Below are positions 14,964-63,858 of a stretch of DNA of 64,000 nucleotides, piece by piece (the first letter of the stretch is position 1; the number at the start of each line of letters is the position of its first letter). Made by a program: the position numbers and the translations under genes. The notes under the pieces were generated by a model, which ran no database searches, was not told where the DNA came from, and saw only the letters and a program-made list of their open reading frames with translations. This DNA is from Candidatus Iainarchaeum sp. (GTDB lineage: Archaea > Iainarchaeota > Iainarchaeia > Iainarchaeales > VGJJ01): contig JAZDJQ010000012.1 in NCBI GenBank assembly GCA_043803765.1, forward strand, positions 109,194 to 173,193, written 5' to 3'.

Positions 14964-15857
14964 ATGCCTTTGATTGAGGGTTTCGATATTGGTGGAACTT
15001 CTATTCGTGCAGCACTTATTAGAAATGAAAAAATGATTGCAAAAAAAACCATTCCAAGCACAAAAGAGGGACATGAAAAACTTTTTTCGACCATCCAAAT
15101 CCTTTCAAAGGAAATTAGAAGCAGCCTTGTTGATGAGAAAGTAGACTATACCGTGATTGGCCTTCCGGGCCCAACGCAAGATAGGGTGTTGCTTAATTCT
15201 GCAACACTTGGAATTGCCTCTCCTGTCTCGCTCGAACCGCTCTTTCATTTTTTTCCTAATCCCCTGCGTTTTGAAAATGATATGAAACTAGCAGTAAAAG
15301 CCGAGTATTTTCATGAACAAGGAAAGAAACAGGACTCATTTTATGTCCTAACATTTAGCACAGGGATTGGTGCTGGACTCGTATGGAATAAGAAAGTATT
15401 GGAAGGAACCATGGGAGAATTTGGCCATATCATATTGAACACTCACACAAAGTCTCCTGCATGTTCATTAGGGCACACGGGTTGCTGGTTTGCATATTCT
15501 TCTGGGTTTGGAATCCAGAAACGTGCTGAAAAAGAAATGAATCAGTCACTTTCCACGATCGATGTTTTTTCGTTAGCCAAAGAAGGAAATGCGATCGCTT
15601 CATCAATCATTTCAGATGCACGAAGAGCAAACGCTCAAGGGATTGGCACCATGTTGAATGTATTTGCAGTTGAACGGATAGTCGTGATGGGAAGTATTGG
15701 ATTGTCCCAATTTACTGAAATTATTCCAACGGTAAAAGAAATCCAGCCCTACACGATTCACCCTATTCCCTCCATCATTCCTACGAGTCTAGGAGATGAC
15801 ATTGGATTGTGGGGGGCATACTATTCGGGTGTTTCTTCTCTTTTAAAAAAAAGTTAA
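14964..15857 (+). CDS. ROK family sugar kinase
   Basis: GFDIGGT, GLPG, END, STGIGAG, GEFGH, CxxGHxGC. Confidence 0.9.
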   Translation: MPLIEGFDIGGTSIRAALIRNEKMIAKKTIPSTKEGHEKLFSTIQILSKEIRSSLVDEKVDYTVIGLPGPTQDRVLLNSATLGIASPVSLEPLFHFFPNPLRFENDMKLAVKAEYFHEQGKKQDSFYVLTFSTGIGAGLVWNKKVLEGTMGEFGHIILNTHTKSPACSLGHTGCWFAYSSGFGIQKRAEKEMNQSLSTIDVFSLAKEGNAIASSIISDARRANAQGIGTMLNVFAVERIVVMGSIGLSQFTEIIPTVKEIQPYTIHPIPSIIPTSLGDDIGLWGAYYSGVSSLLKKS

Positions 15858-15882
15858 AGGTAATGAAAAAAGCATAGAAATG

Positions 15883-16467
15883 TTATTTTAGGCATTGAAA
15901 ACGATAATACCCATATCCTTTCATTCCTAGGTATTTTACGTTGTCAAGTTTGAACCCTGCTTTTTGAAAAATAGATTTAATGTCTTTATCAAAAAACATT
16001 CGTGGATGCTCATCATATTGAACATTGTGAGTAGTCATAAAAAGTAATGAGAGATAGTTTCGCCAATTATTCAATAATGGAATTCCAATCACAATTACCG
16101 CACCCTTTTTACTTACACGGGTTAATTCTTTCAAAAATCCGTTTACTTGCCCCAAGTGTTCAAAAACATCAATAGCAATAATTTGCTCAAAAGAATTGTC
16201 GGGAAAAGGCCATTCATTGCGGGCATCAAAGCACACCGCTTCAATTCCTTCGGACTGAAGCAGCTTGACGGACGCACTCGAAATATCTCCACAAACTAAC
16301 TTGTGTATATGGGGTGTCTGTAATCGAGTCGTGATGCCCGAACCGATATTTAAAGTCGGAACATCGGCCAATCCGCTAAGAAATTTTTCATCGATTTTAG
16401 CTTTTCGCAACGCATGTTCCCGCTTTTCAGGACGATCAAAGTACTTCTCATAATCATAGTCCAGCAT
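15883..16467 (-). CDS. class I SAM-dependent methyltransferase
   Basis: LNIGSG, PFPDNSFE, DVFEHL. Confidence 0.85.
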   Translation of the reverse strand: MLDYDYEKYFDRPEKREHALRKAKIDEKFLSGLADVPTLNIGSGITTRLQTPHIHKLVCGDISSASVKLLQSEGIEAVCFDARNEWPFPDNSFEQIIAIDVFEHLGQVNGFLKELTRVSKKGAVIVIGIPLLNNWRNYLSLLFMTTHNVQYDEHPRMFFDKDIKSIFQKAGFKLDNVKYLGMKGYGYYRFQCLK

Positions 16468-16569
16468 ACTCTACGTAGACGCACTATCTTTTTTACACTA
16501 TCGATAACCCCAAAAAAATCGAATAACGATCGTATTCTCTAGCGATTCCCATGCAATAGAAAAATAAGG

Positions 16570-16589
16570 AGTCCCGCCTCCGGGACTTC
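16570..16589 (-). repeat. tRNA-Tyr 3'-end copy (att-like site, distal end of array)
   Basis: AGTCCCGCCTCCGGGACTTC. Confidence 0.8.
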
Positions 16590-16610
16590 ATCTCTAAAAA
16601 TACTCATTTT

Positions 16611-16769
16611 TCAAAATAAGGCATACACAAATGAGGAAACAGCTGCTGATTGTCCAATAAAAATAAGCAGTGCCACCAGCATAAGCAATACCACAATAGG
16701 CACTAACCACCATACTTTTCGCTTCCACAAAAACTGAAGTAGCCCATTTAAAACAGTTAGTCTGCCCAT
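16611..16769 (-). CDS. DUF5989 (SxtK-like) small membrane protein
   Basis: FLWKRKVWWLVPIVVLL...SSFVYALF. Confidence 0.85.
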   Translation of the reverse strand: MGRLTVLNGLLQFLWKRKVWWLVPIVVLLMLVALLIFIGQSAAVSSFVYALF

Positions 16770-16781
16770 AATGAAGATAGT

Positions 16782-17165
16782 ATGTCCTCCCATTTTAAAA
16801 ATCTAGGGATTTTGCTTGGATTTCTCCCCATTGGGATAATCATTTATGGATTTGTTTTTTCTTCCCCCTCTTTGGTTTTGCCATTCCTTTTGAGTGCCGT
16901 GGCAGTAAATATCCTGCTATTAGTTATTGCGCCGCGAATTTGGAAAAATCCTGCTTTATCCAAAATTAAAATGGGTGCGATGAGTGTTTTTAGTCTATTG
17001 AATAACATTATTGTTTCAGCGGTACTAGCAGTGGCATACGTTTTCAGCGTAGGCATCGTTTTTATTTTCTCCCGCATTATCGGAAAAAAATTCATGAATC
17101 TTTATCCAAAAAAAACGAGCTGGGTGAAAATTGAAAAAGCAAAAGAAGACTATTTGGAGATGTAG
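16782..17165 (+). CDS. SxtJ-like membrane protein
   Basis: hydrophobic, RIIGKKFM...TSWV tail, next to a carbamoyltransferase. Confidence 0.6.
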   Translation: MSSHFKNLGILLGFLPIGIIIYGFVFSSPSLVLPFLLSAVAVNILLLVIAPRIWKNPALSKIKMGAMSVFSLLNNIIVSAVLAVAYVFSVGIVFIFSRIIGKKFMNLYPKKTSWVKIEKAKEDYLEM

Positions 17166-17173
17166 GTGGCGCA

Positions 17174-18916
17174 ATGTACATACTTGGAGTTTCTGCATTT
17201 TATCATGATTCGGCTGCCTGCCTGATTAAAGACGGTGAGATTGTCGCCGCCGCTCAAGAAGAACGTTTCACGAGAAAAAAACACGATAACTCATTCCCAA
17301 AAAACGCAATTGCATATTGCCTCCGGCAGGCAGGCATTTCTCCCAAGGAGGTGAATAAAATTAGTTTTTATGAAAAACCTTATGTCAAATTTGAACGCCT
17401 TCTCTATCAATTTATTGAAACCTATCCAAAATCTTTCTCCACATTCATTGAAACCATCCCTATTTGGCTGAATGAACGGTTAAATGTACCCCAGCATTTT
17501 GAAAAAGAAGGTTTTCGTGCACCCATTCAATATGTGAGTCATCATCTTTCGCATGCAGCAGCCAGTTATTACACTTCCAAATTTGATAATGCGGCCATTC
17601 TCACTATGGATGGTGTAGGAGAATGGGCTACCACCACGATGGGTTTTGCAGAAGGAAATAATATCACACTCACCCATGAAATCCATTTTCCCCATTCGCT
17701 GGGATTGTTATATAGTGCCATTACTGCATATCTTGGTTTTTCAGTGAATAATTCCGAATACAAAGTCATGGGCTTAGCCCCTTATGGAAAACCCAAATAT
17801 AAGAGTGAATTTGACAAGCTCGTTCATGTGTATCCGGATGGCAGTTTCTCCCTCGATATGGATTATTTTGCCTTTACGTATGAAAAAAAAATGAATTCAA
17901 AAAAAATGGAGGAATTATTCAACCATCCCGCTCGAAAAAAAGAATCCGAAGTCACCCAATTCCACAAAGATGTGGCAGCCTCTCTCCAAACCAAAACTGA
18001 AGAAATCGTCATCAAGTTATGCAATGAATTATTTCATCAGACTAAAAAAGAAAATATTTGTTTGGGCGGGGGCGTGGCGCTAAATTCGGTTATTAATGGA
18101 AAAATTTTGACGCAAACGCCTTTCAAAAAAATATGCATCCAGCCCGCAGCAGGAGATGCCGGCAGCGCTATGGGCGCCGCGCTGCATGTATGGCACCATT
18201 ATTCTCCTCAGTCCCTGCGCCTTCCTTTCTCACACGCTTTCTGGGGACCGGGTTTCTCACAGGAAGAAGTAAAAAAATTTCTGGACCAGAAAAAAATAAA
18301 TTATTCCATGCTCAAAAATACACGGGAAATTGCTTCGCATACCGCTAAATTGATTCACGAAGGAAATATTGTGGGTTTTTTCCAAGGGAGAATGGAATGG
18401 GGCCCCCGCGCATTAGGGGCGCGAAGTATTTTGGCCAATCCTACAGACCCAAATATTAAAGATATATTGAACCAGAAAGTCAAGCACCGTGAACATTTTC
18501 GGCCGTTTGCACCGGTGATTCCTGTAGAGGATGCAAAAAATTGGTTTGATTGTGATTTGCCTCTCCCTGAGCCCGCTGATTACATGCTTATGGTGTACCC
18601 TGTCAAAAAATCCAAGCGCGAAAAAATTTTGGGAGTAGTCCACGTGGACGGCTCTGGAAGGTTACAAACCATTCGCAAAAACCAACACGCATTGTATTAT
18701 CAGACCATCCGCGAATTCGAAAAATTATCGGGGGTGCCGATTCTCATTAATACTTCTTTCAATATCCGTGGTGAACCCATTGTGTGCACTCCTGAGGATG
18801 CCTATCGCTGCATGATGGGAACAGGCATTGATTATTTGATGATTGAAAACTTCCTCGTGGCACGAAAAGACAACCTTCAAGATGCTTGGGATAGTGAAAA
18901 ACTAGCAAATGATTAA
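17174..18916 (+). CDS. NodU/CmcH family O-carbamoyltransferase
   Basis: YHDSAA, EERFTRKKH, HHLSHA, EYKVMGLAPYG, GPRALGARS, LINTSFN. Confidence 0.95.
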   Translation: MYILGVSAFYHDSAACLIKDGEIVAAAQEERFTRKKHDNSFPKNAIAYCLRQAGISPKEVNKISFYEKPYVKFERLLYQFIETYPKSFSTFIETIPIWLNERLNVPQHFEKEGFRAPIQYVSHHLSHAAASYYTSKFDNAAILTMDGVGEWATTTMGFAEGNNITLTHEIHFPHSLGLLYSAITAYLGFSVNNSEYKVMGLAPYGKPKYKSEFDKLVHVYPDGSFSLDMDYFAFTYEKKMNSKKMEELFNHPARKKESEVTQFHKDVAASLQTKTEEIVIKLCNELFHQTKKENICLGGGVALNSVINGKILTQTPFKKICIQPAAGDAGSAMGAALHVWHHYSPQSLRLPFSHAFWGPGFSQEEVKKFLDQKKINYSMLKNTREIASHTAKLIHEGNIVGFFQGRMEWGPRALGARSILANPTDPNIKDILNQKVKHREHFRPFAPVIPVEDAKNWFDCDLPLPEPADYMLMVYPVKKSKREKILGVVHVDGSGRLQTIRKNQHALYYQTIREFEKLSGVPILINTSFNIRGEPIVCTPEDAYRCMMGTGIDYLMIENFLVARKDNLQDAWDSEKLAND

Positions 18917-19012
18917 CTATCAAATACGGAGATTCCTTCTCTTGGAAAAAAAGTTGACAGATTAAAAATCCAAAAGCCACCCATTATAAAATTATAGATT
19001 TTTATAGGGTTT

Positions 19013-20113
19013 ATGCGCTCATCTGAGTATCCTACTCTTGTCATGGTAGTGCTTTTTTCATTTATTATTGGATTGTTTCTCGCCGAAGGACTGTTGATCG
19101 TTCTCAACATAGAACCTGCTCCCAATTTACTTTGCACATATATATCGGATGAAACACGCGGTCACGCATTATACCCAAATCTTTCCGGTCATTTTGTTTA
19201 TGAACCTGAAATCGACATGAACTTCACTATCAATAAATTAGGTATGCGCGGAAGTGAACCAGACGAAAAACTAAAAAAAATATTTTTGGCAGGAGATTCC
19301 GTTTCTTTCGGATACAGTGTGGATCAAAATGAATCGTTTGCCGCAAAAACAAATCAAGAAATAAAGAAATTCGGATATGAACTGCTCAACTTGGGAACCC
19401 CCGGTTATGGTTTGACACAATCACTTATTACCATTAAAAAAAATCTTGTGTTTAATAATCCCGAAATTGTAGTATTGGAAATAACTACTCCGAATGATTG
19501 GTCGGATGATTATACCTTCACCACTGTTGGACCTACTAACTGGGTGGATGAACAGCACTGTATGGTCAGCAAGCGCCCTGCTGGAGTCATTACCACAATC
19601 AAATCAATCGCTTACCGGAATTCAAGGCTGGCGCGGCTTATTAACAAAAACTTTCGCCAGGAAAATCTGATAGAATCCAACAATGTGATATCTGACAGCC
19701 TGTTGAAAGACCCAACCCAAATTGTGGTTCAGGCAAGACAGATACAACGCCAGCGTCTGAACGAATTTCGCGAGTTACAATCGCAATATCATTTCAAATC
19801 ACTCATCTTGCTTATTCCAAGTCGTATTGAAACCGATGAGGTTTTTTTTAATCAGACCATCCAGAATACTCGCCCGGCCAATGAATACAATCGTCGAGAA
19901 CAGATTGAATTTTATCTTGGGATTTGCAAGGAGATGGGTTTTGAATGCATTGACATGGGAAAGGCATTTGAGGAAGAATACCAATCCGAATCCGCATCAA
20001 CCGAATATTATAACCATAAAATTGACCATCATCCCAACAAAAAAGGAAACCTGTTCATTGCCGAAACACTGATACCGGAAATTGTCCAAAAAATTCAAGA
20101 AGATACAAATTAG
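19013..20113 (+). CDS. membrane-anchored SGNH/GDSL hydrolase
   Basis: N-terminal TM, GDSVSFG, NLGTPGY, ND, DHHPNKKG. Confidence 0.85.
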   Translation: MRSSEYPTLVMVVLFSFIIGLFLAEGLLIVLNIEPAPNLLCTYISDETRGHALYPNLSGHFVYEPEIDMNFTINKLGMRGSEPDEKLKKIFLAGDSVSFGYSVDQNESFAAKTNQEIKKFGYELLNLGTPGYGLTQSLITIKKNLVFNNPEIVVLEITTPNDWSDDYTFTTVGPTNWVDEQHCMVSKRPAGVITTIKSIAYRNSRLARLINKNFRQENLIESNNVISDSLLKDPTQIVVQARQIQRQRLNEFRELQSQYHFKSLILLIPSRIETDEVFFNQTIQNTRPANEYNRREQIEFYLGICKEMGFECIDMGKAFEEEYQSESASTEYYNHKIDHHPNKKGNLFIAETLIPEIVQKIQEDTN

Positions 20114-20167
20114 AATGGTTCATTTCTCAATAGCGTCATGCGTCATTCGTCAATAGCATAAAAGAGA

Positions 20168-20206
20168 TAGTCCCGCCTCCCGGACTCGCACACGGGTATC
20201 TTCCGG
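20168..20206 (-). repeat. tRNA-Tyr 3'-half copy (att-like site)
   Basis: TAGTCCCGCCTCCCGGACTCGCACACGGGTATCTTCCGG, matches tRNA 26606-26643. Confidence 0.9.
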
Positions 20207-20310
20207 CTTTATTCAAAGGTTCGGCTGTGGCCTCACAATTAGTGAAGTTAGTGCACATAGTGAATAATGGGATAGGCAAGCTCTTTATATGAAAATAATG
20301 CAATAGGGCT

Positions 20311-20937
20311 ATGTTTGAAAAATATCGCCCATTTTTACTGGGAGTTTCTCATTCTAAGGAAATGCTGTGGGATGTTTTTCAAGAGATTGACAAGGTAAAG
20401 CCAAAATCAATTGGAATAGAAGAATCAAAATGGTCTGTTGAGAACTGGAGACAAATTGGGTTGAACCCCCACCACGCTGGATTTTGGCGAGTATTGATTA
20501 GAGAGTGTAGAGCGCGAGGTATTGAAATAACGTACCTTACTCCTGATAGAGTTGCCCAACAAAATATCCGAGAACAACTTCGGTTGAAAAAACTGGGAAT
20601 TACCGCACAAAAGGTTCTTGAAAATCCACAAGGGCACACAGAAGGAAAGGAACTGTTACGACATATGCGCGATAAAACTACGGATGTCGTTGAAATGACT
20701 GCTCGGAAAAGACGTCCACAGATGCTTGTTTTGGGCTTATTTCATTCTGCTATTTTACGAAAAAACTTGGGCATTCCAAAAGCTCGATTTAGTGTCCATG
20801 TAGTCCCTTCGCCACGTGCGATAAGAGAGATGGGTGTTCGCGTTCCAAGAAGAAAATTAGAAGCGAGAAAAAAACAATTAATTGAAGGAATGCTTTTTCA
20901 TGTCAAAGGATACCGAAGAGCCGCTCGAAAAAGATAG
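20311..20937 (+). CDS. hypothetical protein, weak TraB/GumN-like N-terminus
   Basis: LLGVSH...KPKSIGIE, LGLFH; TTTATA 27 nt upstream. Confidence 0.6.
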   Translation: MFEKYRPFLLGVSHSKEMLWDVFQEIDKVKPKSIGIEESKWSVENWRQIGLNPHHAGFWRVLIRECRARGIEITYLTPDRVAQQNIREQLRLKKLGITAQKVLENPQGHTEGKELLRHMRDKTTDVVEMTARKRRPQMLVLGLFHSAILRKNLGIPKARFSVHVVPSPRAIREMGVRVPRRKLEARKKQLIEGMLFHVKGYRRAARKR

Positions 20938-20949
20938 AATTATTCTCAA

Positions 20950-21022
20950 TCCGGTCGTCGGGACGAAAGCGAAGCTTGAGTGTGTGAATGGATTAGTCCC
21001 GCCTCCCGGACTCGCAACCGGG
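20950..21022 (-). repeat. att-like site, near-identical to tRNA-Tyr 3' end plus trailer
   Basis: differs from 26562-26633 by 3 substitutions and 1 indel. Confidence 0.95.
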
Positions 21023-21029
21023 CTTTTAC

Positions 21030-21353
21030 TCACTTTCTCACCGGCGGGTTCGATTCGGCAATGAGGTCTATGCTGGCGAGTACTATCATCTTTTCCAAAA
21101 ACTTCTCATGCTCTTTCAGAATGACGTCTCCATTTGGAAGTTTTGTGATTTCGGCCATCGCACGGTCTCGACATGGCTTACTTTCCCAATCTGCAATAGC
21201 ATACAAAATGGATGGATTCTCCAAACTGCGGAACAGTTTTGTTCCCCTTGCACCCGGGTAAGTTTGAATAATGTCACTCCCCCACTGCCACTGCCGGATA
21301 AAGTCGGTTTCCTTGCCAGGAATGGGATGGTGCTCAAAAATAACGCGATACAT
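21030..21353 (-). CDS. ABM (antibiotic biosynthesis monooxygenase) domain protein
   Basis: PGKETDF...YPGARGTKLFRSLENP...ADWES. Confidence 0.8.
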   Translation of the reverse strand: MYRVIFEHHPIPGKETDFIRQWQWGSDIIQTYPGARGTKLFRSLENPSILYAIADWESKPCRDRAMAEITKLPNGDVILKEHEKFLEKMIVLASIDLIAESNPPVRK

Positions 21354-21369
21354 AGGTTCCTTCGCTTAA

Positions 21370-21594
21370 CTAAGCCATTTTCATAAACTCGTCTCGCTCC
21401 ATCTTGAGTTCGAACTTAATGATTTTGTTTAACAATCCAGGCGGAATGGGCTTGTTCGAATGAAAGGCAACTGTTAGAATTCGCCCATCCAAATGTTCAA
21501 ATGTTTTGTGTGACCCTTTTTGTCGCACTTCCAAAAAACCAAGTTTGTGCAGAATTTTGATTAAGTCTTGGGGATACAGAACGGATAATTTCAT
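21370..21594 (-). CDS. hicA: HicA toxin
   Basis: KLGFLEVRQKGSH...GLLNKIIK. Confidence 0.9.
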   Translation of the reverse strand: MKLSVLYPQDLIKILHKLGFLEVRQKGSHKTFEHLDGRILTVAFHSNKPIPPGLLNKIIKFELKMERDEFMKMA

Positions 21595-21608
21595 TTGAAA
21601 TCACCTAT

Positions 21609-21830
21609 TTACACAACCACTTTAACCATTCCAATAACCGATTCAACATCCACTTTGACTTTCTTTTTGACAAGCGTTTCTAAGTGCAAGGAAATTGCTT
21701 CCTTCATATTTTCTAACAATTCTTCAACAGTATCCGCATAGGAATAGCAACCGGGCAAAGCAGGGACTGAACCATAGTATTGTCCAGTTTCTGCATCTTT
21801 TTCGATAACCACATCGTAAGGTCTTGTCAT
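21609..21830 (-). CDS. hicB: HicB antitoxin (short form)
   Basis: VPALPGCYSYADTVEELLENMKEAI. Confidence 0.9.
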   Translation of the reverse strand: MTRPYDVVIEKDAETGQYYGSVPALPGCYSYADTVEELLENMKEAISLHLETLVKKKVKVDVESVIGMVKVVV

Positions 21831-21903
21831 AATACTACCCATACTACTATGAGAATAAAACCTTGCTTCCAGTAAACCGCCAAAAAGTGCTATTCATCCA
21901 TTC

Positions 21904-21960
21904 GGCGGGACGATTCATAAGCCTCAGGTGGTGATGGATTAGTCCCGCCTCCCGGGACTT
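21904..21960 (-). repeat. att-like site with inverted left arm
   Basis: GGCGGGACGATTCAT...ATGGATTAGTCCCGCCTCCCGGGACTT. Confidence 0.9.
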
Positions 21961-22085
21961 CAATGGAAAATATTCAGTATTATTCTTTTCCTCGCCTAAA
22001 ATATGTGCAGTGTACATCGTCCGCCGAATTTGACTGATGATCCCATCCATATATCTCTTTTATACCCAGAAACAATTGATTGGCC

Positions 22086-22835
22086 ATGGATTGGGTATTA
22101 TTGTTCATTGTTTTTCTAGTGGGACTCGGAACAACTTTCATCGGCGCGATTAGTGGGGGAGGGGGGCTTCTCATGCGACCCATTCTAATTTTTTTAGGTG
22201 TGCCCACCATCACTCTGATCGGCACTCCACGCGTGGCAGGAATATTGGGCGATTGGCCTGGATTGTTTTTGTTTCACAAGCATAAAAAAATCGATTGGAA
22301 TCTGGCCATATTCCTGACCATCCCTAACTTGATTGGAACCATCATCGCGGGGATGGTAGTCATAAGCTTGCCGACAGAGGCATTGGAATTATTTTTAGGA
22401 ATACTGCTCATCGTCTCGGGAGTGGTATTTTCGTTCAATAAAAATTTCGGATTGCTTGAACAAAAATCTCCCTTTTCCAAAATTGGACAAAACATCCTCG
22501 GATTTATCGGGACGAATGTCATATCCTTCGTTGGAACCATTACCGGTGGACTTGGCACACTCTACATCTCGTTCTACACGTTGATTTATGGTAAAAATTA
22601 CATCAACGCGGCTGGGTTGTGGCGCATCTCTTCCTATTTCGGAGGATTGGGCAGTTCGGTGGTATTTATCTGGAGTGGAATTGTCGACTGGCAACTCTGT
22701 CTGGTGCTGAGTGCAGGATTTTTGATCGGCTCCTATTTTGGGACGATTTACGGATTAAAAAAAGGGGTCGCGCGGGTCCGCTACCTTGTGATAGCACTCG
22801 CATTTGGCGCTGGAATAAAACTAATCCTATTTTAG
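22086..22835 (+). CDS. TauE/SafE (TSUP) transporter
   Basis: GAISGGGGLL, about 8 TM segments, GSYFG. Confidence 0.9.
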   Translation: MDWVLLFIVFLVGLGTTFIGAISGGGGLLMRPILIFLGVPTITLIGTPRVAGILGDWPGLFLFHKHKKIDWNLAIFLTIPNLIGTIIAGMVVISLPTEALELFLGILLIVSGVVFSFNKNFGLLEQKSPFSKIGQNILGFIGTNVISFVGTITGGLGTLYISFYTLIYGKNYINAAGLWRISSYFGGLGSSVVFIWSGIVDWQLCLVLSAGFLIGSYFGTIYGLKKGVARVRYLVIALAFGAGIKLILF

Positions 22836-22870
22836 GGAAAACGCCCAACCATAGATCAACGTATATTCAT

Positions 22871-22945
22871 CTCCCAAACCAGCACGCGAGGATTCTTTGT
22901 TCGAGGCCTCGCCTGAGGGCTCGCTGACGTTAGTGTAGTTAGTGC
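22871..22945 (-). repeat. degenerate att-like site plus shared cassette-end motif
   Basis: CTCCCaaACcaGCAC, then TTTGTTCGAGGCCTCGCCTGAGGGCTCG...TTAGTGTAGTTAGTGC (cf. 20208-20254). Confidence 0.6.
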
Positions 22946-22966
22946 TGTTCAACGAATGCATCTGTC

Positions 22967-23320
22967 TTACCTTTTCTTTATCTTGAACCGTTTATCATAA
23001 TCGGGGTGCGACTCAATAACTAACACGAAGCAAATGACTTCGATTTCTTGGCGGCGAATGGTAAAAAGCATTCGCCAGTATTGAGCGAGTCGAATTTTGA
23101 ATAGATTATCTACATCCAATTCTTTTGGAATATCTTTTTTGGAGACTACTTCTCCGCGCAGAGGGTCTTCTTTCAACCATTCAATCTTTTCATTAATCGA
23201 ACGCCAGAGGGTTTGATTTTCTGAACTCTTGATTCCTTTAGATTCTTCTTCAGTTACAAGTTTCTTCAGGCGTTCGTACTCTTCGAGAGCCTGACCAGTA
23301 AGGCGGACGCGTGCTTTCAT
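22967..23320 (-). CDS. RelE-like toxin
   Basis: LKEDPLRG...NLFKIRLAQYWRMLFTI...HPDYDKRF; ATGA overlap with upstream gene. Confidence 0.7.
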   Translation of the reverse strand: MKARVRLTGQALEEYERLKKLVTEEESKGIKSSENQTLWRSINEKIEWLKEDPLRGEVVSKKDIPKELDVDNLFKIRLAQYWRMLFTIRRQEIEVICFVLVIESHPDYDKRFKIKKR

Positions 23321-23583
23321 ACTTCCACGCTCGCATCCATCAATCGCTTCATTTTGTCTTTCGGAACATACACCCAAATAATGCCTTTGGGAGTGTCTAA
23401 AATCATAAAGCGCTTCTCCAAGTAATCTAAAATAACATCAAGAGTTGGGCGCATAATACGATTACCCGCTCGCTTTAGCAATTCATAACGGGAAAGAGGC
23501 TCTTTCGCCTCTTTGAGAATCTCTTCGACTAAAAGAACGGTTTTGAGAGTAGGGTAGTGTAGGACCTGCATAAACGTCACCAA
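23317..23583 (-). CDS. putative antitoxin / small winged-helix protein
   Basis: PTLKTVLLVEE...TLDVILDYLE; coupled to the RelE-like gene; ATG at 23571 is an alternative start. Confidence 0.65.
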   Translation of the reverse strand: MVTFMQVLHYPTLKTVLLVEEILKEAKEPLSRYELLKRAGNRIMRPTLDVILDYLEKRFMILDTPKGIIWVYVPKDKMKRLMDASVEV

Positions 23584-23644
23584 CTACACTACGATAGACA
23601 TATAACGCATATAAAGATATACCCTTAAACTCGCATTTCCAGTA

Positions 23645-24325
23645 TTACTTTATTGCCTTTAGCATTTCCACTGCACGTTTAGGGTCTCCCCTTCCTACTG
23701 GGAAATAACACGGGACCACATTGGTTTGATGATTGCCCACTTTTAATGGATAAGTTGCTAGTTTGCGTGATTGAACGAATTTATCATAATAGTCCTGTAA
23801 CCTGATTGTTTCTTGTGTGAGAAATGTAAATGGAATCAGCCCAAATGTGACAATGGTTTTGGGTTGAACTATCTCAATCTCCCTTCTCAAAATAGGTAGA
23901 AATAACTTAACTTTCTGTGCATCTGGCAATGTGGCGTCAGCTCCTGTCCATTTTACAATGTTAGTAAAGTAAAACGATTTTGAATCCAAGAAAGACCTAA
24001 CTTTTTCAGTAAATTCCAATGACCAATTAGGTTCTTTCTCAATTTGTTTCATCAGTTCGTCGTCAAATAATTCTGCACGATTAAAAATTCGCCAGACGGG
24101 CTTGGTTCCAATAAAAGGAAAACGAGGACCTTTCCATAAAGGACTTGAGCTAATATTATGGTGCGTTGGATTAATGAAAACAAACATGTAATTCGGACTC
24201 TCAACATGGCCGTTTCCTACAATGGGCATCAACCGATTTTCTGGAAAAAACGGTGTATGTGTGTCATTCACTATTTTCCATAAATCGTCTAACGAATGGC
24301 AATCTTCAGGACTCATAGGATACAA
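23645..24325 (-). CDS. uracil-DNA glycosylase superfamily protein (atypical)
   Basis: FVFINP, YFTNIVK, REIEIVQPKTIVTFG, CYFP. Confidence 0.75.
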   Translation of the reverse strand: MYPMSPEDCHSLDDLWKIVNDTHTPFFPENRLMPIVGNGHVESPNYMFVFINPTHHNISSSPLWKGPRFPFIGTKPVWRIFNRAELFDDELMKQIEKEPNWSLEFTEKVRSFLDSKSFYFTNIVKWTGADATLPDAQKVKLFLPILRREIEIVQPKTIVTFGLIPFTFLTQETIRLQDYYDKFVQSRKLATYPLKVGNHQTNVVPCYFPVGRGDPKRAVEMLKAIK

Positions 24326-24344
24326 ACCGTTCTTTGATATTTAA

Positions 24345-24410
24345 TCCGTCCGGCGGGACAAGTCTGAAGTGTGAAAGTTTGAGGTAATAGTCCCGCCTCC
24401 CGGTCCTGCA
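24345..24410 (-). repeat. att-like site with inverted left arm
   Basis: TCCGTCCGGCGGGACAA...TAGTCCCGCCTCCCGGTCCTGCA. Confidence 0.9.
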
Positions 24411-24419
24411 GTTATTTCT

Positions 24420-25394
24420 CTATTCAATGGATTCACCCAGCTTTTTGACAATAATCTCTTTATTTTCCTCAATAATTTGATGAATTTCTTTTCCACGATT
24501 CTCAAGGCACAAGTAAATGAATTTGGAGAACTTTGCATACTCTTTGGAAAGCTGAACCCGTTCAAGCAATGTAATGTAGCTCGCGCGATTGGAAAGGTTC
24601 ACAATCGCACGTGGAAAACCTTTTTTTTGGAGCATTCGATTGAGGATTTCCCTTCCTGTGCGTCCATTTCCATCCTCAAACGGGTGAATAAACTCAAAGC
24701 GGGCGTGAAATTCGGATGCTAATTCAAGCGGGTGCACTCTTTCGCTATTTTTCTCCATCCAATCTAACAATTTTTTTATTCCGCTTTCGACTTTATCAGC
24801 TGGAACTGGCCTTACTTTTGATGCAGTAATGAACATCGGCCCTGTTCGATACTTTCCAGGATGTTTCTCCGGAAATCCATCTAAAATAGCCGCATTGATT
24901 TTTTTGATGTTACGTTCATTGATTTCATTAATTTTCTTGGAAACCATTGCCGCTTTTTTCATATTTTCAATTTCTCTTATCTCATCTACTTTCTTTCCGG
25001 CAACGGAAGCCCCTTTCGTCAAAACTAACAGTGCTTCCTGCAAACTGAGCGAGTTTCCTTCCACAGAAGCACTTCCCTGTGCGTAACGCACGAATTCGTC
25101 TTCTTTAAATGATTCAAATCCGCTGGGAAAAAAATCCTCTAGGATAGAATAGTCTACTTTCAGTCGTTCCAAAGATAGAATTTCAGGAAAAGAGAGGATG
25201 TGCGACCGAAACTGTTCATGTGTTTGCTTAGCCCGTTCCAGTGCCTTCTTTTGAATGAACGTTTCAAGTCCTTCTTTCATTCTTCCGAAAGCCAGCCCCT
25301 TGTTTCCAAGAAGGACACTTATCCTCTTCTTTTCTACTCGGTCTTCTAAATAGAAGTAAGCCGTCCCCTTGATTGTGCGCTTTGAAATGAACAT
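24420..25394 (-). CDS. Fic family protein with N-terminal beta-rich domain
   Basis: HPFEDGNGRTGR; SASVEG inhibitory helix; KRTIKGTAYFYL N-terminus. Confidence 0.92.
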   Translation of the reverse strand: MFISKRTIKGTAYFYLEDRVEKKRISVLLGNKGLAFGRMKEGLETFIQKKALERAKQTHEQFRSHILSFPEILSLERLKVDYSILEDFFPSGFESFKEDEFVRYAQGSASVEGNSLSLQEALLVLTKGASVAGKKVDEIREIENMKKAAMVSKKINEINERNIKKINAAILDGFPEKHPGKYRTGPMFITASKVRPVPADKVESGIKKLLDWMEKNSERVHPLELASEFHARFEFIHPFEDGNGRTGREILNRMLQKKGFPRAIVNLSNRASYITLLERVQLSKEYAKFSKFIYLCLENRGKEIHQIIEENKEIIVKKLGESIE

Positions 25395-25459
25395 AGAACA
25401 AGTTAACACCAAAAAGGTTAAAAAATGGTATTTTTAGTAAATATGGTGTTAACCCACAA

Positions 25460-25609
25460 TTAGTTTTCCAAACCTAATTTGACGCCCTCTCTGATAATAC
25501 CATAAACGTGCCAAATATCACAGACTCCACAGGACGGAAAATAATCCGGGCAACGTTTTCCCCAGTATTTTCGAATATGTTTATTCAATTCAAGCAGAAC
25601 TTTCTTCAT
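25460..25609 (-). CDS. small Cys-containing protein
   Basis: MKKVLLEL...KRCPDYFPSCGVC; GGGAG SD. Confidence 0.45.
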   Translation of the reverse strand: MKKVLLELNKHIRKYWGKRCPDYFPSCGVCDIWHVYGIIREGVKLGLEN

Positions 25610-25904
25610 CTTCCTTAACTCCCTCGTCGAAGCACTTGTTGCATTCCCAATACTCAACCTTTCTCACCTTCCCAGTCCACCTGACTACATTGTGGCTTTT
25701 TCCACCCATTCGAAAAGTTCCAACTTTCACATGCTCACCCGTTCCCTCAATGGGAAATTTTAGTTTACTAAAGAAATGTCCTTTATCATAATGACCTGAT
25801 TTTGTTAGTCGAACCCACATCCACTTTCCACAAATCAAACATTTACGACGAATTTTTCGGACAAATTTAGCATTCTCGCGCGCATGAAAATGTTTTTCAG
25901 ACAC
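25590..25904 (-). CDS. small Zn-ribbon-like protein
   Basis: CLIC...WECNKC. Confidence 0.55.
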   Translation of the reverse strand: MSEKHFHARENAKFVRKIRRKCLICGKWMWVRLTKSGHYDKGHFFSKLKFPIEGTGEHVKVGTFRMGGKSHNVVRWTGKVRKVEYWECNKCFDEGVKEDEESSA

Positions 25905-25988
25905 CTTTTAAAAAGACCCCATTCAAAATAAAATCATATGCAAATTAATACACTATAGACGAATACCAGTTCGACAGTTAGACGGTTA

Positions 25989-26045
25989 TTATACTTCCAC
26001 GCTTCCATGGATCAGCTTCTTCATCTTATCGTTCGGAGCATACAA
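25989..26045 (-). pseudogene. 3' remnant of a paralogue of the 23317-23583 gene
   Basis: LYAPNDKMKKLIHGSVEV* vs VYVPKDKMKRLMDASVEV*, 11/18 identical. Confidence 0.75.
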
Positions 26046-26100
26046 CCTCCTGATACTCGCAACCGGGAAATTATATCCGAAGCCTCGTCTGCGGACTCGG
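26046..26100 (-). repeat. degenerate att-like site plus shared cassette-end motif
   Basis: CCTCCtgatACTCGCAACCGGG then TATATCCGAAGCCTCGTCTGCGGACTCGG. Confidence 0.7.
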
Positions 26101-26107
26101 AGGGCAT

Positions 26108-26530
26108 TTAATTATCCATCTTAAGCGCTTTAAGTTCAGTTTCAAGTTTTTTTACAAGGTCATTTAAGTCAGTATATTGGATGATTTTGTGTAAATTAGG
26201 AATACCCAAAACCATAGTTGATTTTGATAAATCAACAGTGTCTTTGGCAATGAGAATGAGTGGAATATCATTTTCGTATCCCATTTGAAGTTCCATTCCA
26301 ACACCATGAGAAGGACTACTTACTTCGGCGATAAATAAGTCGCATTTTGTAATGGTGTCAATTGTTCGCGTGTAAAACTGTTTTGGAGTTTCTTTTGAAT
26401 CCCAAAAATCGGGATAAGTACCTATAACTTTGTCATAGTATTTGCTACAAAGTTTAGCTATTCTTTTGTAAATAGGGAGATAATCCTGCCCAAAAAGAAA
26501 GATTGGTCCGAACACGTAAACGCTCGTCAT
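26108..26530 (-). CDS. nucleoside 2-deoxyribosyltransferase-like (Rcl/DNPH1-type) protein
   Basis: VYVFGPI, CDLFIAEVSSPSHGVGMEL. Confidence 0.85.
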   Translation of the reverse strand: MTSVYVFGPIFLFGQDYLPIYKRIAKLCSKYYDKVIGTYPDFWDSKETPKQFYTRTIDTITKCDLFIAEVSSPSHGVGMELQMGYENDIPLILIAKDTVDLSKSTMVLGIPNLHKIIQYTDLNDLVKKLETELKALKMDN

Positions 26531-26608
26531 AGTACTGCCACCTCAACCATGTATTTAACTGTCCGGTCGTCGGGACGAAAGCGAAGCTTGAGTCGGTGAA
26601 TGGATTAG

Positions 26609-26681
26609 TCCCGCCTCCCGGACTTGCACCGGGGATCTTCCGGTCTACAGCCGGACGCATTAGCTACTATGCTAAGGCGGG
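26609..26681 (-). tRNA. tRNA-Tyr(GTA), intronless
   Basis: CCCGCCT/AGGCGGG-A acceptor, TCCGG-CT GTA GA-CCGGA anticodon arm. Confidence 0.93.
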
Positions 26682-26850
26682 GACGATTTTATGTGGTTCG
26701 CCTCCCCGTTTGGTTATTTTTTCCCAAAAAGGGGGGGTATAGTCCGGCAGACTATTTGTTTCGGGATAGGCTTTTTAAGCCTCCGAATGGGGGGCGTTTT
26801 GAGTCATTCCCCACGCGTCTTTAAAATGATTTTTCCCAGTAGGAGTCCAC

Positions 26851-27465
26851 ATGCCTGTTGAAAAAATCACCATTTGGTATGCCCCATCTAAGTGTATTGG
26901 TGCAGGGGAGTGTGTGAAGAACAATCCTGCCGTATTCGGGTTTGATGACCGTACAAAAAAGGCGATGCTGATTGGTGGAAAAATAAATGATAAAAAGGAA
27001 TTCACTCGTGAAATTACGGGCGATTCTACACATATTGGGTATGCGATTACGGCTGCTGCTTCTTGTCCGGTAAATGCGTTCATCGTAAAAGATTCTGCCG
27101 GAATAGTTCGTGTGGGAAATAAAATAGAAATTGCTGAAGCAAAAGAATTGCATCCGGTTTATGATGATGCAAAGGATTTTGTGTTAGACCCGAAAGGTTA
27201 TTTTCTCATTCGCGTGAATGCACAAAAAAAAGAAATCGAAGTTGGTTTTTGTAATACTAAAAACATTGTTGTGTTGAAAGTAATAGGAAAAAAGCCTATT
27301 GATATTTACACAGCAGTTGCTCGTAAAGAACCGTGTTTGCGTCCTGAGCATTATGCGTATCTTGGAAGAGAGTTGGAGAAAGCATATCATTGTATTCAAA
27401 CAGGATTAGTGTATGTTCAGGATGGTGAATTGCACGAAATGAAGTTAGTAGGAAAAAAAGAATAA
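26851..27465 (+). CDS. ferredoxin-DUF4346 fusion protein
   Basis: CIGAGEC...SCP N-terminus; DPKGYFLI...HYAYLGRELEKA C-terminus. Confidence 0.8.
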   Translation: MPVEKITIWYAPSKCIGAGECVKNNPAVFGFDDRTKKAMLIGGKINDKKEFTREITGDSTHIGYAITAAASCPVNAFIVKDSAGIVRVGNKIEIAEAKELHPVYDDAKDFVLDPKGYFLIRVNAQKKEIEVGFCNTKNIVVLKVIGKKPIDIYTAVARKEPCLRPEHYAYLGRELEKAYHCIQTGLVYVQDGELHEMKLVGKKE

Positions 27466-27630
27466 TTCGGCTTTTTCCTAGTGGCTTGTTAATGGTTCAA
27501 ATGCTTAGGCTTTTTGCTATAAATCGCTTGGGAAATGGTTTTTCGATTGTCATACTTTTCTTATTTTATTATTCCTTTTTTTTAAGATAGGTTGAAACAA
27601 ATCCCTTTTTTGTATTGAAAAACACGCAAT

Positions 27631-27755
27631 CTAAACTACGGCGGGCTTCAGCCCGCCGGGTTCACTTCCCGCGAACGACTTGTCGAGAACCCAACACAAA
27701 GCCGATTCATCCACCCGCTAAAAGCAGGCGGGGTTCTCGGCAAGGGGTTCCTAAA
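27631..27755. mobile_element. probable non-autonomous IS200/IS605-type miniature element
   Basis: GC-rich island with hairpins CGGCGGGC-TTCA-GCCCGCCG and CCCGC-TAAAAGCAG-GCGGG; no ORF. Confidence 0.55.
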
Positions 27756-27781
27756 TTAAGTGGTTCATTCTAAAGAGTAGA

Positions 27782-28810
27782 ATGGATTCTTTTCAAGTAA
27801 GTAAGTTGTTGGAATGGTTTTCTCATGCTCAACGAAAATTGCCTTGGAGGGAGAATTATTCCCCGTATGAAGTGTGGTTGTCCGAAGTCATGGCTCAACA
27901 AACCCGTATTGAGCAGATGCTTCCCTATTATGCTCGTTTTCTTAAAAAATTTCCGACCGTGAAAGTGCTGGCGGATGCAGATGAGGAAAAAGTATTGAAG
28001 GAATGGGAAGGATTAGGGTATTATTCTAGGGCACGGAATGTGCAGGCGGCGGCTAAACAAATAGTGAATGAAAAAAGTGGAAAGATTCCTACAACAAAGG
28101 AAGAATTGGGAACATTGCGTGGTTTTGGTCCTTATATTTCAAGCGCGGTAGCAAGTATTGCCTTTAATCAGGATGAAGTAGTGGTGGATGGAAATGTTTT
28201 CCGTGTGATGAGTCGTTTTTGGGGGAATAAGGAAGATGTTTCTCTTCCTAAAACACGCCGATTGTTTGAAAAAAAACTACTAAAAATTCTTCCGAGAGGA
28301 AAAGCAAGGGATTTTAATCAGGCATTGATGGAGTTAGGTGCATTAGTATGCGTTCCGGAAAAGCCGTTGTGTGAAAAGTGTCCTCTTTCTAAAGCGTGTT
28401 TTGCAAATATAGAGAGTAAACAATCCTTTTTTCCAGTGAAAAAGAAGAAAGGAAAAATTCCCTTGCGTCACTTTGCTGCGATTCATGTAGAAAATGATGC
28501 GCGTATTCTTCTCTTTCCGAGGAAAGAGAAATTGTTGAATGGAATGTATGAGTTTCCGATGGTGGAATACAATCCATTATCGGATAGCGTGAAGGATATT
28601 GAAAAGAAAATAGGAGAAAAATTTGGTTGGCGTGTGCATTTGTCTAAAAAAATAGGGGATGCGACACAGCAGTACTCTCATTTCAAACAGCACGTATGCT
28701 TGTTTGATGCGGTGATTGAAAAAAAGGATAGTATTCCTTGGGTGAGAAAGGAAAGCGTTTCTTCCCTTCCATTATCGCGTATTCAGCAGAAATTGTTGCG
28801 TGATTTTTAG
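27782..28810 (+). CDS. mutY: A/G-specific adenine glycosylase
   Basis: RKLPWR, SEVMAQQT, WEGLGYYSRARN, VDGNV, CX6CX2CX5C. Confidence 0.95.
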   Translation: MDSFQVSKLLEWFSHAQRKLPWRENYSPYEVWLSEVMAQQTRIEQMLPYYARFLKKFPTVKVLADADEEKVLKEWEGLGYYSRARNVQAAAKQIVNEKSGKIPTTKEELGTLRGFGPYISSAVASIAFNQDEVVVDGNVFRVMSRFWGNKEDVSLPKTRRLFEKKLLKILPRGKARDFNQALMELGALVCVPEKPLCEKCPLSKACFANIESKQSFFPVKKKKGKIPLRHFAAIHVENDARILLFPRKEKLLNGMYEFPMVEYNPLSDSVKDIEKKIGEKFGWRVHLSKKIGDATQQYSHFKQHVCLFDAVIEKKDSIPWVRKESVSSLPLSRIQQKLLRDF

Positions 28811-61646: not shown

Positions 61647-62624
61647 TCAATTGAGTCTCCGATGCTTTATCTGACTAAGGAATTCTTCATAGCAAAATTT
61701 AACAAAAAACGATTCGTTTCCCGATTCAACCGATCGAATAAGTTCTTTGAAGTAAGCCGCGGTATTCTTTGAAATATTCAGGATAGGATAGCCCGCATCT
61801 TGGAGAACTTTATTGAACAACAATCGGCACATGCGCTTGTTCCCATCCTTAAATGGGTGAATGAGATATAATTTCAAATGCACAAGCCCGGCCAGTTCTA
61901 ACGGATGAATATTCTTATTTTTATCCAACCATACAAAAAAAGTATCCAGCTCCTTCTCCACTTTGGCAGGAGCAGGCGGACGATAATCAATCTCCTCGCT
62001 TTTCATTGTCAATGGATTAAATCTGGCGATTATGCGTTGGTCGTCACGCAGCTGCCCAGGACTTTTGTCTTCGAAAGTTGTCATTACGATTCCATGTAAG
62101 CGCAGAATATCTTTCTTGTTCCATTGAATACTGGGTAAATAGTTGAATCCTGTAATCATCGAACTCGAAATAATAACTTTACTATCCATGGTTAGTTTCT
62201 TTTTTCGCTTATCAATAATTTCAAACGCGGTCTCGACATCGGCATAATCGACGTCCACTCCTTCCGTACGAAGAGTGGTAAAAACAAAATGAACGACTTG
62301 ATTCTTATCATATTCTTCTCTTTGTTTCTTGCTTAGTTTTTGAAAACGAGAAATAAAGTTATCCTTTACTTGCTCAACTCCGGCCAGTTCTTTTCTTGAA
62401 AGAATATAAAATTGATATTGATCAAGAATTTTATCGTATAGAGAAGTAAGAGTTTGTTTTACTTTCTCTTGCAGCTCTTTTTCTTTTTTCTTAAATTCAG
62501 TTTCAGAAGGCTTCGTTCTCCCAAGATAGAGACGAACCTTACGAACTTTTTTCCCGATACGATAACTTTTTCCCAAATAATAGTATTTGTTTCCTTTCAC
62601 CGTTCTTTCGATTATTTTACCCAT
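61647..62624 (-). CDS. Fic family protein with N-terminal beta-rich domain
   Basis: HPFKDGNKRMCR; ERTVKGNKYYYL. Confidence 0.92.
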   Translation of the reverse strand: MGKIIERTVKGNKYYYLGKSYRIGKKVRKVRLYLGRTKPSETEFKKKEKELQEKVKQTLTSLYDKILDQYQFYILSRKELAGVEQVKDNFISRFQKLSKKQREEYDKNQVVHFVFTTLRTEGVDVDYADVETAFEIIDKRKKKLTMDSKVIISSSMITGFNYLPSIQWNKKDILRLHGIVMTTFEDKSPGQLRDDQRIIARFNPLTMKSEEIDYRPPAPAKVEKELDTFFVWLDKNKNIHPLELAGLVHLKLYLIHPFKDGNKRMCRLLFNKVLQDAGYPILNISKNTAAYFKELIRSVESGNESFFVKFCYEEFLSQIKHRRLN

Positions 62625-62631
62625 AACAATA

Positions 62632-62704
62632 TGACTACATTTAAGTATATAAAATGTAGTCACAACTTGGAGACTACGTCATTTGAAACAAGTTGTAGTC
62701 ACAA
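62632..62704 (-). promoter_or_regulatory. TATA box flanked by inverted-repeat operator
   Basis: TGACTACATTT-9-AAATGTAGTCA; second TGTAGTCACAA at 62694. Confidence 0.7.
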
Positions 62705-62824
62705 TTGCCCCAAGCGTGGGATGTTCTATCTTGTTCATTAGTAATGCACACTATTGTATAAGGTTGAATTTGTAGATAGTATTAGCGCATAAAGTCTAAC
62801 ATCGTAAAACAAATTGTTATCCGC

Positions 62825-63775: not shown

Positions 63776-63778
63776 AAT

Positions 63779-63858
63779 AGTTATACCCACAAAGAAGTAT
63801 ATAAAATGTGGTTATAACTTTTGTAACTACAATTCTTCTTCTATTTTATAGTTATAAC
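63779..63858 (-). promoter_or_regulatory. TATA box flanked by inverted-repeat operator
   Basis: AGTTATACCCACA / TGTGGTTATAACT (12/13) plus a second weaker pair. Confidence 0.65.

Follow-up and report, generated by a model that had tools for sequence, protein, structure and literature searches.

The 3' end of the tRNA-Tyr(GTA) gene of Candidatus Iainarchaeum sp., a DPANN archaeon, carries a tandem array of small integrated units, which occupies positions 16569/20168-26606 of the 64,000-nucleotide stretch studied here (the window; all positions refer to it). The window comes from contig C12 of a genome of 1.02 Mb in 19 contigs, labelled G000. Units of the array share a motif at their tRNA-distal end. 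On the evidence of its sequence, this motif is the coding sequence of a short open reading frame (ORF), presumably translated, and not primarily a recombinase site; most likely it represents the 5' leader, Int(N), of an integrase gene. The account we favour, which we regard as probable, is that the array was built by a tRNA-Tyr-specific, Xer-like integrase, that the motif is the split-off leader of this enzyme, and that the units are non-autonomous and were captured.

The array is anchored by its integration target, an intact and intronless tRNA-Tyr(GTA) gene on the minus strand at 26608..26681 (ARAGORN; Rfam tRNA score of 63.2 bits). The 3' end of this gene (plus strand TAGTCCCGCCTCCCGG..), hereafter the core, recurs at 20168, 20994, 21940 and 24388 and, as a weaker match, at 16569, besides the tRNA's own copy at 26606. 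Alignment adds two decayed attachment (att) copies at 22868-22895 and 26044-26067. These are the direct core repeats left behind by integration into the 3' part of a tRNA gene. They delimit units of 561-3599 bp (0.5-3.6 kb), each with one to four genes of unrelated families. Genome-wide, the core is found in the array and in a single copy on contig C9, and nowhere else. The core is present in 17/17 congeners, with 1-11 copies each, and forms arrays of 2-11 copies in eight of the 17.

The arrangement has the geometry of serial integration: in plus-strand view, each core is followed on its right by sequence of the right-hand unit and preceded on its left by sequence of the left-hand unit. This geometry fits because the same DinB-like gene directly follows the tRNA-Tyr gene at the empty sites of three congeners (G010, G012 and G013) and also follows the distal-most core copy in two sister genomes, G016 and G001. 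The whole genome analysed contains no DinB-like flank gene. In G016, a homologous cassette aligns with the window from 22897, the first base of the 29-mer region described below, to 24403, the end of the next core. From these limits, a unit consists of distal motif, cargo, proximal arm and core.

The distal motif, found on the minus strand, comprises a 29-mer and 9-bp TTAGTG-type units. An earlier sequence-only reading of this DNA had reported 29-mers just inside three sites, and their starts were reproduced exactly at 20208, 22896 and 26072. At site A (20208..20265; profile E = 8e-5), the 29-mer at 20208-20236 is followed by three TTAGTG-type units (20239, 20248 and 20257). The first two form a TTAGTG pair that begins where the earlier reading had placed this repeat, and the third, reading ATAGTG, is additional. 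At site C (22896..22945; profile E = 3.5e-15), the 29-mer is followed by a TTAGTG pair at 22930/22939, again starting at the reported position. Site E (26072..26100) has the 29-mer alone, with 21/29 identity. A fourth 29-mer, degenerate and reading ..IEPAGEKVSKSPVASPGGGT when translated in the frame of the core (compared with site C by eye), lies at about 21030..21060 on the same strand, with neither TTAGTG repeats nor an ATG.

Pairwise identities of the 29-mers are 20/29 (A-C), 21/29 (C-E) and 19/29 (A-E), and a search of both strands of the window with any one of the 29-mers ranks the other two sites highest. When the queries were run against 100 first-order Markov windows of 64 kb, the highest match arising by chance generally had 18-19 identities and never more than 21. 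Matches of at least 20 arose in 5/100 (query A), 3/100 (C) and 1/100 (E) simulated windows, which makes the significance of the 29-mers alone borderline. The wider motif is strongly significant. An nhmmer profile made of twelve copies from relatives, leaving out the window sequence, the core and the T-arm mimic, matched the 1.02-Mb genome solely at 22900-22963 (E = 3.5e-15) and 20213-20260 (E = 8e-5), and its best match to the reversed genome had E = 1. Site E was not reached by this profile; it is supported by its 21/29 identity, its place just past the decayed att copy and the fact that it aligns as an ORF, which is weaker support than that for A and C.

The sequence-only reading had proposed that such a profile be scanned over related genomes, and that motifs occurring independently of att copies would speak against a cassette end. 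In the relatives scanned, the motif was always tied to att copies; the four apparently core-less matches adjoin decayed cores within arrays. It is carried by approximately 19 of the 35 non-tRNA copies (29-mer and/or repeats; counted by eye, three degenerate), a regular-expression count of 6-9/35 being clearly too low. The same reading had noted ACTCGCA where the tRNA has ACTTGCA, and had taken this T-arm mimic to arrive with the cassette. ACTCGCA is indeed present at 20184, 21010 and 26055, against ACTTGCA at 26622 in the tRNA, and the geometry fits the proposed arrival, the right side of a shared core belonging to the unit on the right. ACTCGCA is also the genuine tRNA-Tyr T-loop in four of the eleven intronless congener genes read (13 loci, two with intron).

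Read on the tRNA-sense strand, the motif forms a micro-ORF whose start lies beyond the TTAGTG repeats and whose frame crosses the tRNA-like core. In nearly every copy the order is ribosome-binding site (GGTGA/GGAGG-type, 5-9 nucleotides before the ATG), ATG, (S/C)-T-N repeats, acidic stretch, T-arm mimic and core. The TTAGTG units are read as (S/C)TN codons, the 29-mer as an acidic E-x3-4-(E/D)-(P/A)-x-x-K, and the core always as ..SPGGGT... An ATG-started ORF in the SPGGGT frame is present in twelve aligned copies. Spacers of seven lengths (37, 58, 61, 64, 73, 76 and 97 nucleotides) separate the last CACTAA unit from the core, and the spacer is in frame in 12/12 contiguous-type copies; these are a curated subset, the raw script having returned 20 matches, several of them spurious, with frames in the ratio 16:3:1. 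Variability by codon position is 0.39/0.38/0.48 over 45 codon columns, the third being somewhat higher. The micro-ORF stops 3-37 codons (mostly 10-20) into the neighbouring proximal arm. As a protein profile, it matched 13 of the 196 genomes of the order, twelve of them in the family.

In the window, the ORF alignment places three micro-ORFs on the minus strand: A (20136..20258; 40 residues, MCTNFTNCEATAEPLNK..ASPGGGT..), which crosses att copy A; C (22827..22961; 44 residues, MHSLNSTNYTNVSEPSGEASNKESS..), which starts six nucleotides past the stop of a toxin-like gene; and E (26021-26107; 28 residues, MPSESADEASD..), which contains the 29-mer of site E. One could take the micro-ORF to be an independent small cassette gene, such as a regulator or excision helper, and not an integrase fragment. 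Its ribosome-binding site, ATG and intact frame are kept in units that lack an integrase, and it is often the last gene of a cassette operon, directly after a toxin gene. Against this, it has 28-66 residues of low complexity with an unconserved tail whose frame differs by arm subtype, it is partly encoded by tRNA-derived sequence, and the two ORFs tested belong to no Pfam/NCBIfam family. We regard an independent gene as highly improbable.

A remnant of a tRNA intron was also considered as the origin of the motif and rejected: the introns of 13 intron-bearing tRNA-Tyr genes of relatives (47-214 nucleotides) show no resemblance to the motif by eye, and no anticodon-stem piece is present at sites C and E. 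Such introns, of 47-214 nucleotides at the anticodon loop, are found in other genera of the order (loci L017-L031). They are also present in two congeners (loci L022 and L023), G008 with 120 nucleotides and G015 with 134, while most congeners and the genome analysed are intronless at this gene.

The identity of the leader is suggested by the sister genomes. In G016 and G001, a 350-residue PF00589 integrase lies directly 3' of the intact tRNA-Tyr gene. The integrase ORF of G016 opens inside the tRNA gene and reads ..GASPGGGT|ITIKS.., which is the micro-ORF frame, and no ATG, GTG or TTG occurs from the core to the conserved DIY motif, where all homologues begin aligning. The G001 integrase is 62% identical and holds the equivalent position. 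The G016 element measures 8.1 kb; that of G001 is collinear with it and split over two contigs, and its far end (contig C35:1603) carries a motif ORF, MNHMLNSTNYTNSTKSVDSAPRPQSPGGGT, with a GGAGGTG ribosome-binding site. Given that the integrases are open in the SPGGGT frame and that the G001 element carries the motif, Int(N), the 5' leader of this gene, is the most likely identity of the motif. In the window, an ATG within the tRNA-Tyr gene opens a minus-strand frame at 26454-26660 (MRPAVDRKIPGASPGGGT), and the corresponding frame continues into the integrase in G016 and G001. As a result, gene callers start the integrase within the tRNA there (P0001 and others).

The integrases match PF00589 with E = 1.8e-18 (G016) and 1.3e-18 (G001), as their sole Pfam match; PF16795 (Phage_integr_3) is not among their families. 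Their best solved relatives are the Xer proteins 4a8e, 1a0p, 5jjv and 5hxy, and the SSV1 integrase chain is absent from the structure matches at E <= 0.01. The integron integrase model TIGR02249 scores 41.7 bits on the sister-genome integrase, against a cut-off of 265, and there is a weak IntI4 match. The cognate integrase was found in two of the 18 family genomes, G016 and G001. It is not present in the genome analysed, whose relatives of it are 39%/36% identical (38%/31% by tblastn) and lie on other contigs: no integrase or tyrosine recombinase occurs among the 79 window ORFs scanned, and the three PF00589 genes of the genome are all on contigs other than that of the array. This absence suggests the units were captured there.

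A metagenome scan returned 80 loci of this integrase clade, of which 68 were examined and twelve with incomplete match were dropped. In 30 of the 68, the integrase lies immediately 3' of a same-strand tRNA gene, and the tRNAs concerned are Tyr, Asp, His, Asn, Glu, Thr, Ser, Pro, Cys and Val. Between the tRNA end and the conserved DIY motif there are typically 40-125 nucleotides.

The mechanism we propose starts from an autonomous source, a plasmid-like element of approximately 8 kb that encodes the tRNA-Tyr-specific, Xer-like tyrosine integrase. Each unit would bring an attP made of a proximal arm (P), the tRNA-identical core and a distal arm (P'), the last comprising T-arm mimic, 29-mer and TTAGTG repeats and ending up tRNA-distal in the unit upon integration. 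In the circular, excised form of the autonomous element, the motif ORF would run in frame into the integrase gene, and integration would split the leader Int(N) from the integrase, as in SSV-type ('suicidal') integrases. The TTAGTG units within the leader probably double as DNA-level sites, either arm-type or regulatory, to which a protein would bind. The units of the window would have lost the integrase part or never possessed it, having instead an arm of approximately 45 nucleotides that could pair with the core. Being non-autonomous, they would move only with the cognate integrase supplied in trans.

Several observations weigh against a split leader. The fused gene itself, in which P', core and integrase are contiguous as in the free form, was not found. 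None turned up in a scan of viral contigs; an order-wide six-frame search placed all 31 ORF-profile matches in open frames of at most 88 residues; and a search for longer proteins to which the micro-ORF aligns gave none at E <= 10, which is weak evidence. None of the metagenome loci examined, including the 30 with a same-strand tRNA just upstream, joins a motif-type P' arm to an integrase. The far end of the G016 element lacks the motif, and a TAG stop lies two codons before its core. In the closest metagenomic relatives (L055, L058 and L050/51), the integrase has an apparent ATG or GTG 5-8 nucleotides past the tRNA end, and the G001 integrase has a possible TTG start just past it. Such starts suggest that the integrase may not need the leader, which may then be dispensable for catalysis and relevant to expression only; the G-rich core could serve as ribosome-binding site for an integrase starting just past the tRNA. 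In the micro-ORF itself, the codon-position signal is weak, and the C-terminal part is not conserved as a protein, since the reading frame changes with the P-arm subtype. Even third positions hardly vary in the ACT AAC units, and two copies (L035_7975 and L037_8624) have these units ahead of a new ribosome-binding site with its ATG.

The last two points bear on a purely DNA-level reading of the motif, in which the ORF is incidental and both the CTCG..CTCG 29-mer and the TTAGTG repeats serve either as arm-type sites, bound by the integrase or by a directionality factor, or as a regulatory region. The repeats vary from one to four in number while nearly invariant in sequence, and the two copies just named carry them outside the ORF. 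Moreover, GTTAGTG-like repeats flank the core on its opposite side at L055, a related integrase locus, a TGAAT-type unit read by eye also occurs in the P arm beside the core, the micro-ORF tail is unconserved, and no long fused protein was found in the searches above. However, all seven repeat-to-core spacer lengths are in frame, and fixed helical phasing would not favour 3-bp steps. Most copies have an ATG with a properly spaced ribosome-binding site, the conserved D/E, K, N and T codons show wobble-type variation, and the motif frame is the integrase frame in both G016 and G001. We therefore give a motif without coding function a small but real chance, and consider it unlikely. The near-invariant ACT AAC units nevertheless indicate a DNA-level constraint. 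Given that they are nearly invariant, variable in number and twice outside the ORF, we read the TTAGTG units as putative binding sites embedded in the leader. The proposal of the sequence-only reading that the motif is an arm-type site or a packaging or transfer signal is thus retained in part: the TTAGTG repeats still look arm-type, the 29-mer appears primarily coding, and no evidence was found for a packaging or transfer signal.

That reading had also reported a shared motif at the tRNA-proximal end, which is borne out. A proximal-arm profile, which contained the four window copies, matches the genome in four places (20946-20991, 21892-21938, 24339-24385 and 26558-26602), all directly left of att cores. 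By repeat and profile, the P arm of unit A occupies 20946..20993 and combines a GCGAAGC mini-hairpin (20969) with an inverted imperfect core copy (CCGGTCGTCGGGAC); its identity to the arm at 26562 is 91%. That of unit B (21892..21939) is of subtype b. That of unit C, of subtype c (GGCGGGAC..GTCCCGCC), spans 24339..24416 when taken together with its att copy, which ends at 24416. The P arm of unit E (26558..26605) lies directly 3' of the intact tRNA gene and has its GCGAAGC at 26581. Among 43 att copies, 25 have a proximal arm with an imperfect inverted copy of the whole core approximately 30 nucleotides to the left. Arms of subtype a form a 4-bp stem closed by C-GNA-G, which in the window reads GCGAAGC (20969 and 26581), a sequence known for its extraordinary stability as a DNA mini-hairpin. 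In related arms, the mini-stem covaries (AAGC/GCTT, AAAC/GTTT, AACC/GGTT, AAGT/ACTT) and the C-GNA-G loop closure is kept.

These arms raise a comparison with integrons, in which the whole P-core-P' junction would be an attC-like site recombined as a folded single strand, with the tRNA as attI. Its hairpin would form by pairing of the core with the inverted copy in the P arm, and the distal motif would be no more than one part of the site. The proposed structure was tested on 11 of 24 P arms, all of subtype a and chosen by eye. Pairing holds in 92.7% of its cells; shuffled alignments gave 87.7%, and none of 500 shuffles reached the observed value. Compensatory changes affect two pairs of the small stem (GC:5, AU:3, CG:2) and two pairs of the outer stem, and at L035:4421 the P arm carries a change that compensates for a mutation in the core. 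GCGAAGC is a stable DNA mini-hairpin motif (PMC13037366). The small units, the cargo rich in toxin-antitoxin genes and the Xer-like integrase with its weak IntI4 match point in the same direction. Against such recombination, the sequence derives from a tRNA, hairpin stabilities are modest (z from -0.7 to -2.5), RNAalifold over all 24 P arms kept four consensus pairs and found no covariation, and the 11 arms are mutually related, so that the shuffles overstate the structural support. In addition, the autonomous elements of G016 and G001 have no P arm, no integron integrase was found (the TIGR02249 score being far below its cut-off), no canonical attC is reported, and the Rfam scan found tRNA only. 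Since stabilities are modest and the sequences are related, the proximal-arm structure is treated as a lead, and recombination of the junction as a folded strand is quite unlikely.

A broader form of the comparison would make the system a tRNA-anchored integron analogue, with tRNA-Tyr as attI and with integrase-less mini-cassettes ending in attC-like hairpins, each built from the inverted core copy and the C-GNA-G mini-hairpin. A Xer-like integrase, supplied in trans by a small plasmid-like element, would shuffle the cassettes and exchange them between species, possibly in single-stranded form. We also regard this as unlikely; were it true, the leader ORF across the site would couple integrase expression to the free or integrated state.

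Whichever recombination route applies, the cassettes have moved between species, as far as sequence identities can tell. Window positions 22897-24403 are 88% identical in nucleotides to the G016 cassette, whose toxin-like protein is 99% identical in amino acids; that of G017, from another genus, is 97% identical. The Fic unit is 82% identical in nucleotides to a stretch of G004. Chromosomal flanks, by comparison, are 65-69% identical in nucleotides, and the neighbouring gene 51-60% in amino acids. Given that cassette identity is far above chromosomal identity, the cassettes appear to be exchanged horizontally as units, and their mobilization would be in trans, by an autonomous element. This agrees with the chassis of two conserved ends and unrelated cargo that had been proposed from the window alone: the units are discrete, exchangeable modules, one of which recurs in another species.

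The cargo was identified by a Pfam/NCBIfam scan and divides among the units as follows. One unit carries an unknown 208-residue protein (20311-20937, plus strand). The next carries ABM (21030-21353) and HicA/HicB (21370-21842), both on the minus strand, and is followed by TauE (22080-22835, plus strand). The remaining genes are all on the minus strand: a toxin/antitoxin-like pair (22967-23583) with a UDG-like gene (23645-24325), then Fic (24420-25412) with two small ORFs (25460-25904), and last a nucleoside 2-deoxyribosyltransferase-like gene, below the Pfam cut-off (26108-26530). Besides this Fic cassette, two further Fic-domain genes lie side by side near the window end, at 61647-63790. The Pfam scan also gave a class III signal peptide match among the window ORFs, which, like the names of the integrase homologues, agrees with a DPANN archaeon of the Diapherotrites/Iainarchaeota kind.

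The att copies between these genes differ in preservation. Copy A (20168..20207; repeat and alignment) joins the core TAGTCCCGCCTCCCGG to the longest tRNA-like stretch of the array, with the T-arm mimic ACTCGCA, the variable region and CTTCCGG. Copy B (20994..21022) reads ACTCGCA, and those at 21940-21968 and 24388-24416 adjoin the P arms of units B and C; these three were recognized as core repeats. Decayed copy C (22868..22895; alignment) retains nothing but the part from CTCC rightwards and the T-arm mimic. Decayed copy E (26044..26067; CCTCCTGATACTCGCAACCGGG; repeat and alignment) is fused on its left side to a fragment of an antitoxin/toxin-like pair at 25991-26047, whose 57 nucleotides are 77% identical to the toxin/antitoxin gene overlap at 23319-23375. 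Neither decayed copy has kept its proximal arm or the GTCCCG portion of its core, and each begins with ..CTCC; this common break point may be a preferred cleavage or deletion site.

The probable distal-most att copy lies at 16569..16597. It shows 66% ungapped identity and matches the 21940 copy, including GGGACTTCA, with a 1-nucleotide gap (the gapped match was read by eye). It has no proximal arm on its left, so a chromosomal flank probably follows. The 3.6 kb at 16569-20168 carry DUF5989, carbamoyltransferase and SGNH-like genes, for which no homologues were found in the fetched loci of relatives. Given the match of the 16569 copy to the 21940 copy with one gap, this segment may be an additional distal unit. 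The copy on contig C9, at approximately 5750, is a tRNA-Tyr 3'-end-like fragment (ATGTCCCGCCCCCCGGACTTGCA) with neither proximal arm nor motif. In Rfam at E <= 1, tRNA-Tyr is the sole match over 15500-28000, with no other RNA family.

Among known systems, the SSV-type 'suicidal' (type I) archaeal integrases and the gene capture associated with them resemble the proposed arrangement most directly; they are reviewed in PMC8371274 and treated by Badel et al. 2020 (PMC7253208); see also She et al. 2001. In both cases integration takes place in the 3' part of a tRNA gene. On the proposed account, the core would likewise lie inside the integrase frame, so that integration would leave the 5' piece at the far junction and the catalytic piece by the tRNA, as the review describes for the SSV type (PMC8371274), and elements would be trapped when no intact integrase is around. 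The differences are considerable. The integrase here is of the Xer-like PF00589 type, whereas the SSV-type superfamily is given in the review as PF16795 and monophyletic (PMC8371274). The split-off piece here amounts to just approximately 30 low-complexity residues, and relatives may start right after the core. The host here is a mesophile-type DPANN archaeon, whereas the corresponding parts of these papers tie the system to one family, mostly of hyperthermophiles (PMC8371274, PMC7253208). Finally, tandem arrays are the rule here, whereas they were never observed for suicidal-integrase elements according to the relevant statement of Badel et al. (PMC7253208).

The closest bacterial concept for the cassettes is, by analogy, that of the cis-mobilizable element (CIME). 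In both, att-flanked units without a recombinase lie side by side at one tRNA-like gene, and the att site is shared with autonomous elements, here the integrase elements of approximately 8 kb at tRNA-Tyr in G016 and G001. The genomic islands of Dehalococcoides at ssrA reportedly also lie in tandem. Unlike CIMEs, the present units are archaeal and far smaller, their mobilization is presumed, and both their ends are conserved over 45-100 nucleotides, including the leader ORF and the hairpin arm. The term CIME is used for bacteria in PMC6323972 and PMC5704250, and the ssrA islands are treated in PMC3146451, as far as the portions consulted go.

The system also shares features with integrons: an array of small cassettes with unrelated, toxin-antitoxin-rich cargo; cassettes with an imperfect inverted repeat at their end and the crossover site (here a predicted one) in the outer box of this repeat; most arrays without an adjacent integrase (compare CALINs); and a recombinase in the Xer/IntI branch. 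The recombination core here is the 3' end of a tRNA and apparently not an attC R box. Integrons differ further in that there is here no IntI, no attI beside an integrase gene, and a long conserved 5' end with an ORF in the cassettes. Genes lie on both strands here, a separate TATA-like box was recognized by eye at each of two cargo genes, and single-strand recombination would be a proposal by analogy. Integrons have been reported in Archaea by Ghaly et al. 2022, in the part of that paper concerned (PMC9668308).

Taken together, the system is a new variant of archaeal gene capture, tandem accretion and cis-mobilizable elements, with integron-like traits. For annotation, the result accounts for the recurring 'intergenic' repeats and short ORFs beside tRNA-Tyr. 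If the leader is indeed split from its integrase on integration, the 'suicidal' arrangement would be extended to DPANN archaea and to the Xer-like branch of tyrosine recombinases. Tiny integrase-less units with two conserved ends appear to be exchanged between species whose genomes measure approximately 1 Mb, and in such reduced organisms a hot spot of this kind may be a main route by which toxin-antitoxin, DNA-repair and defence-type genes are gained.

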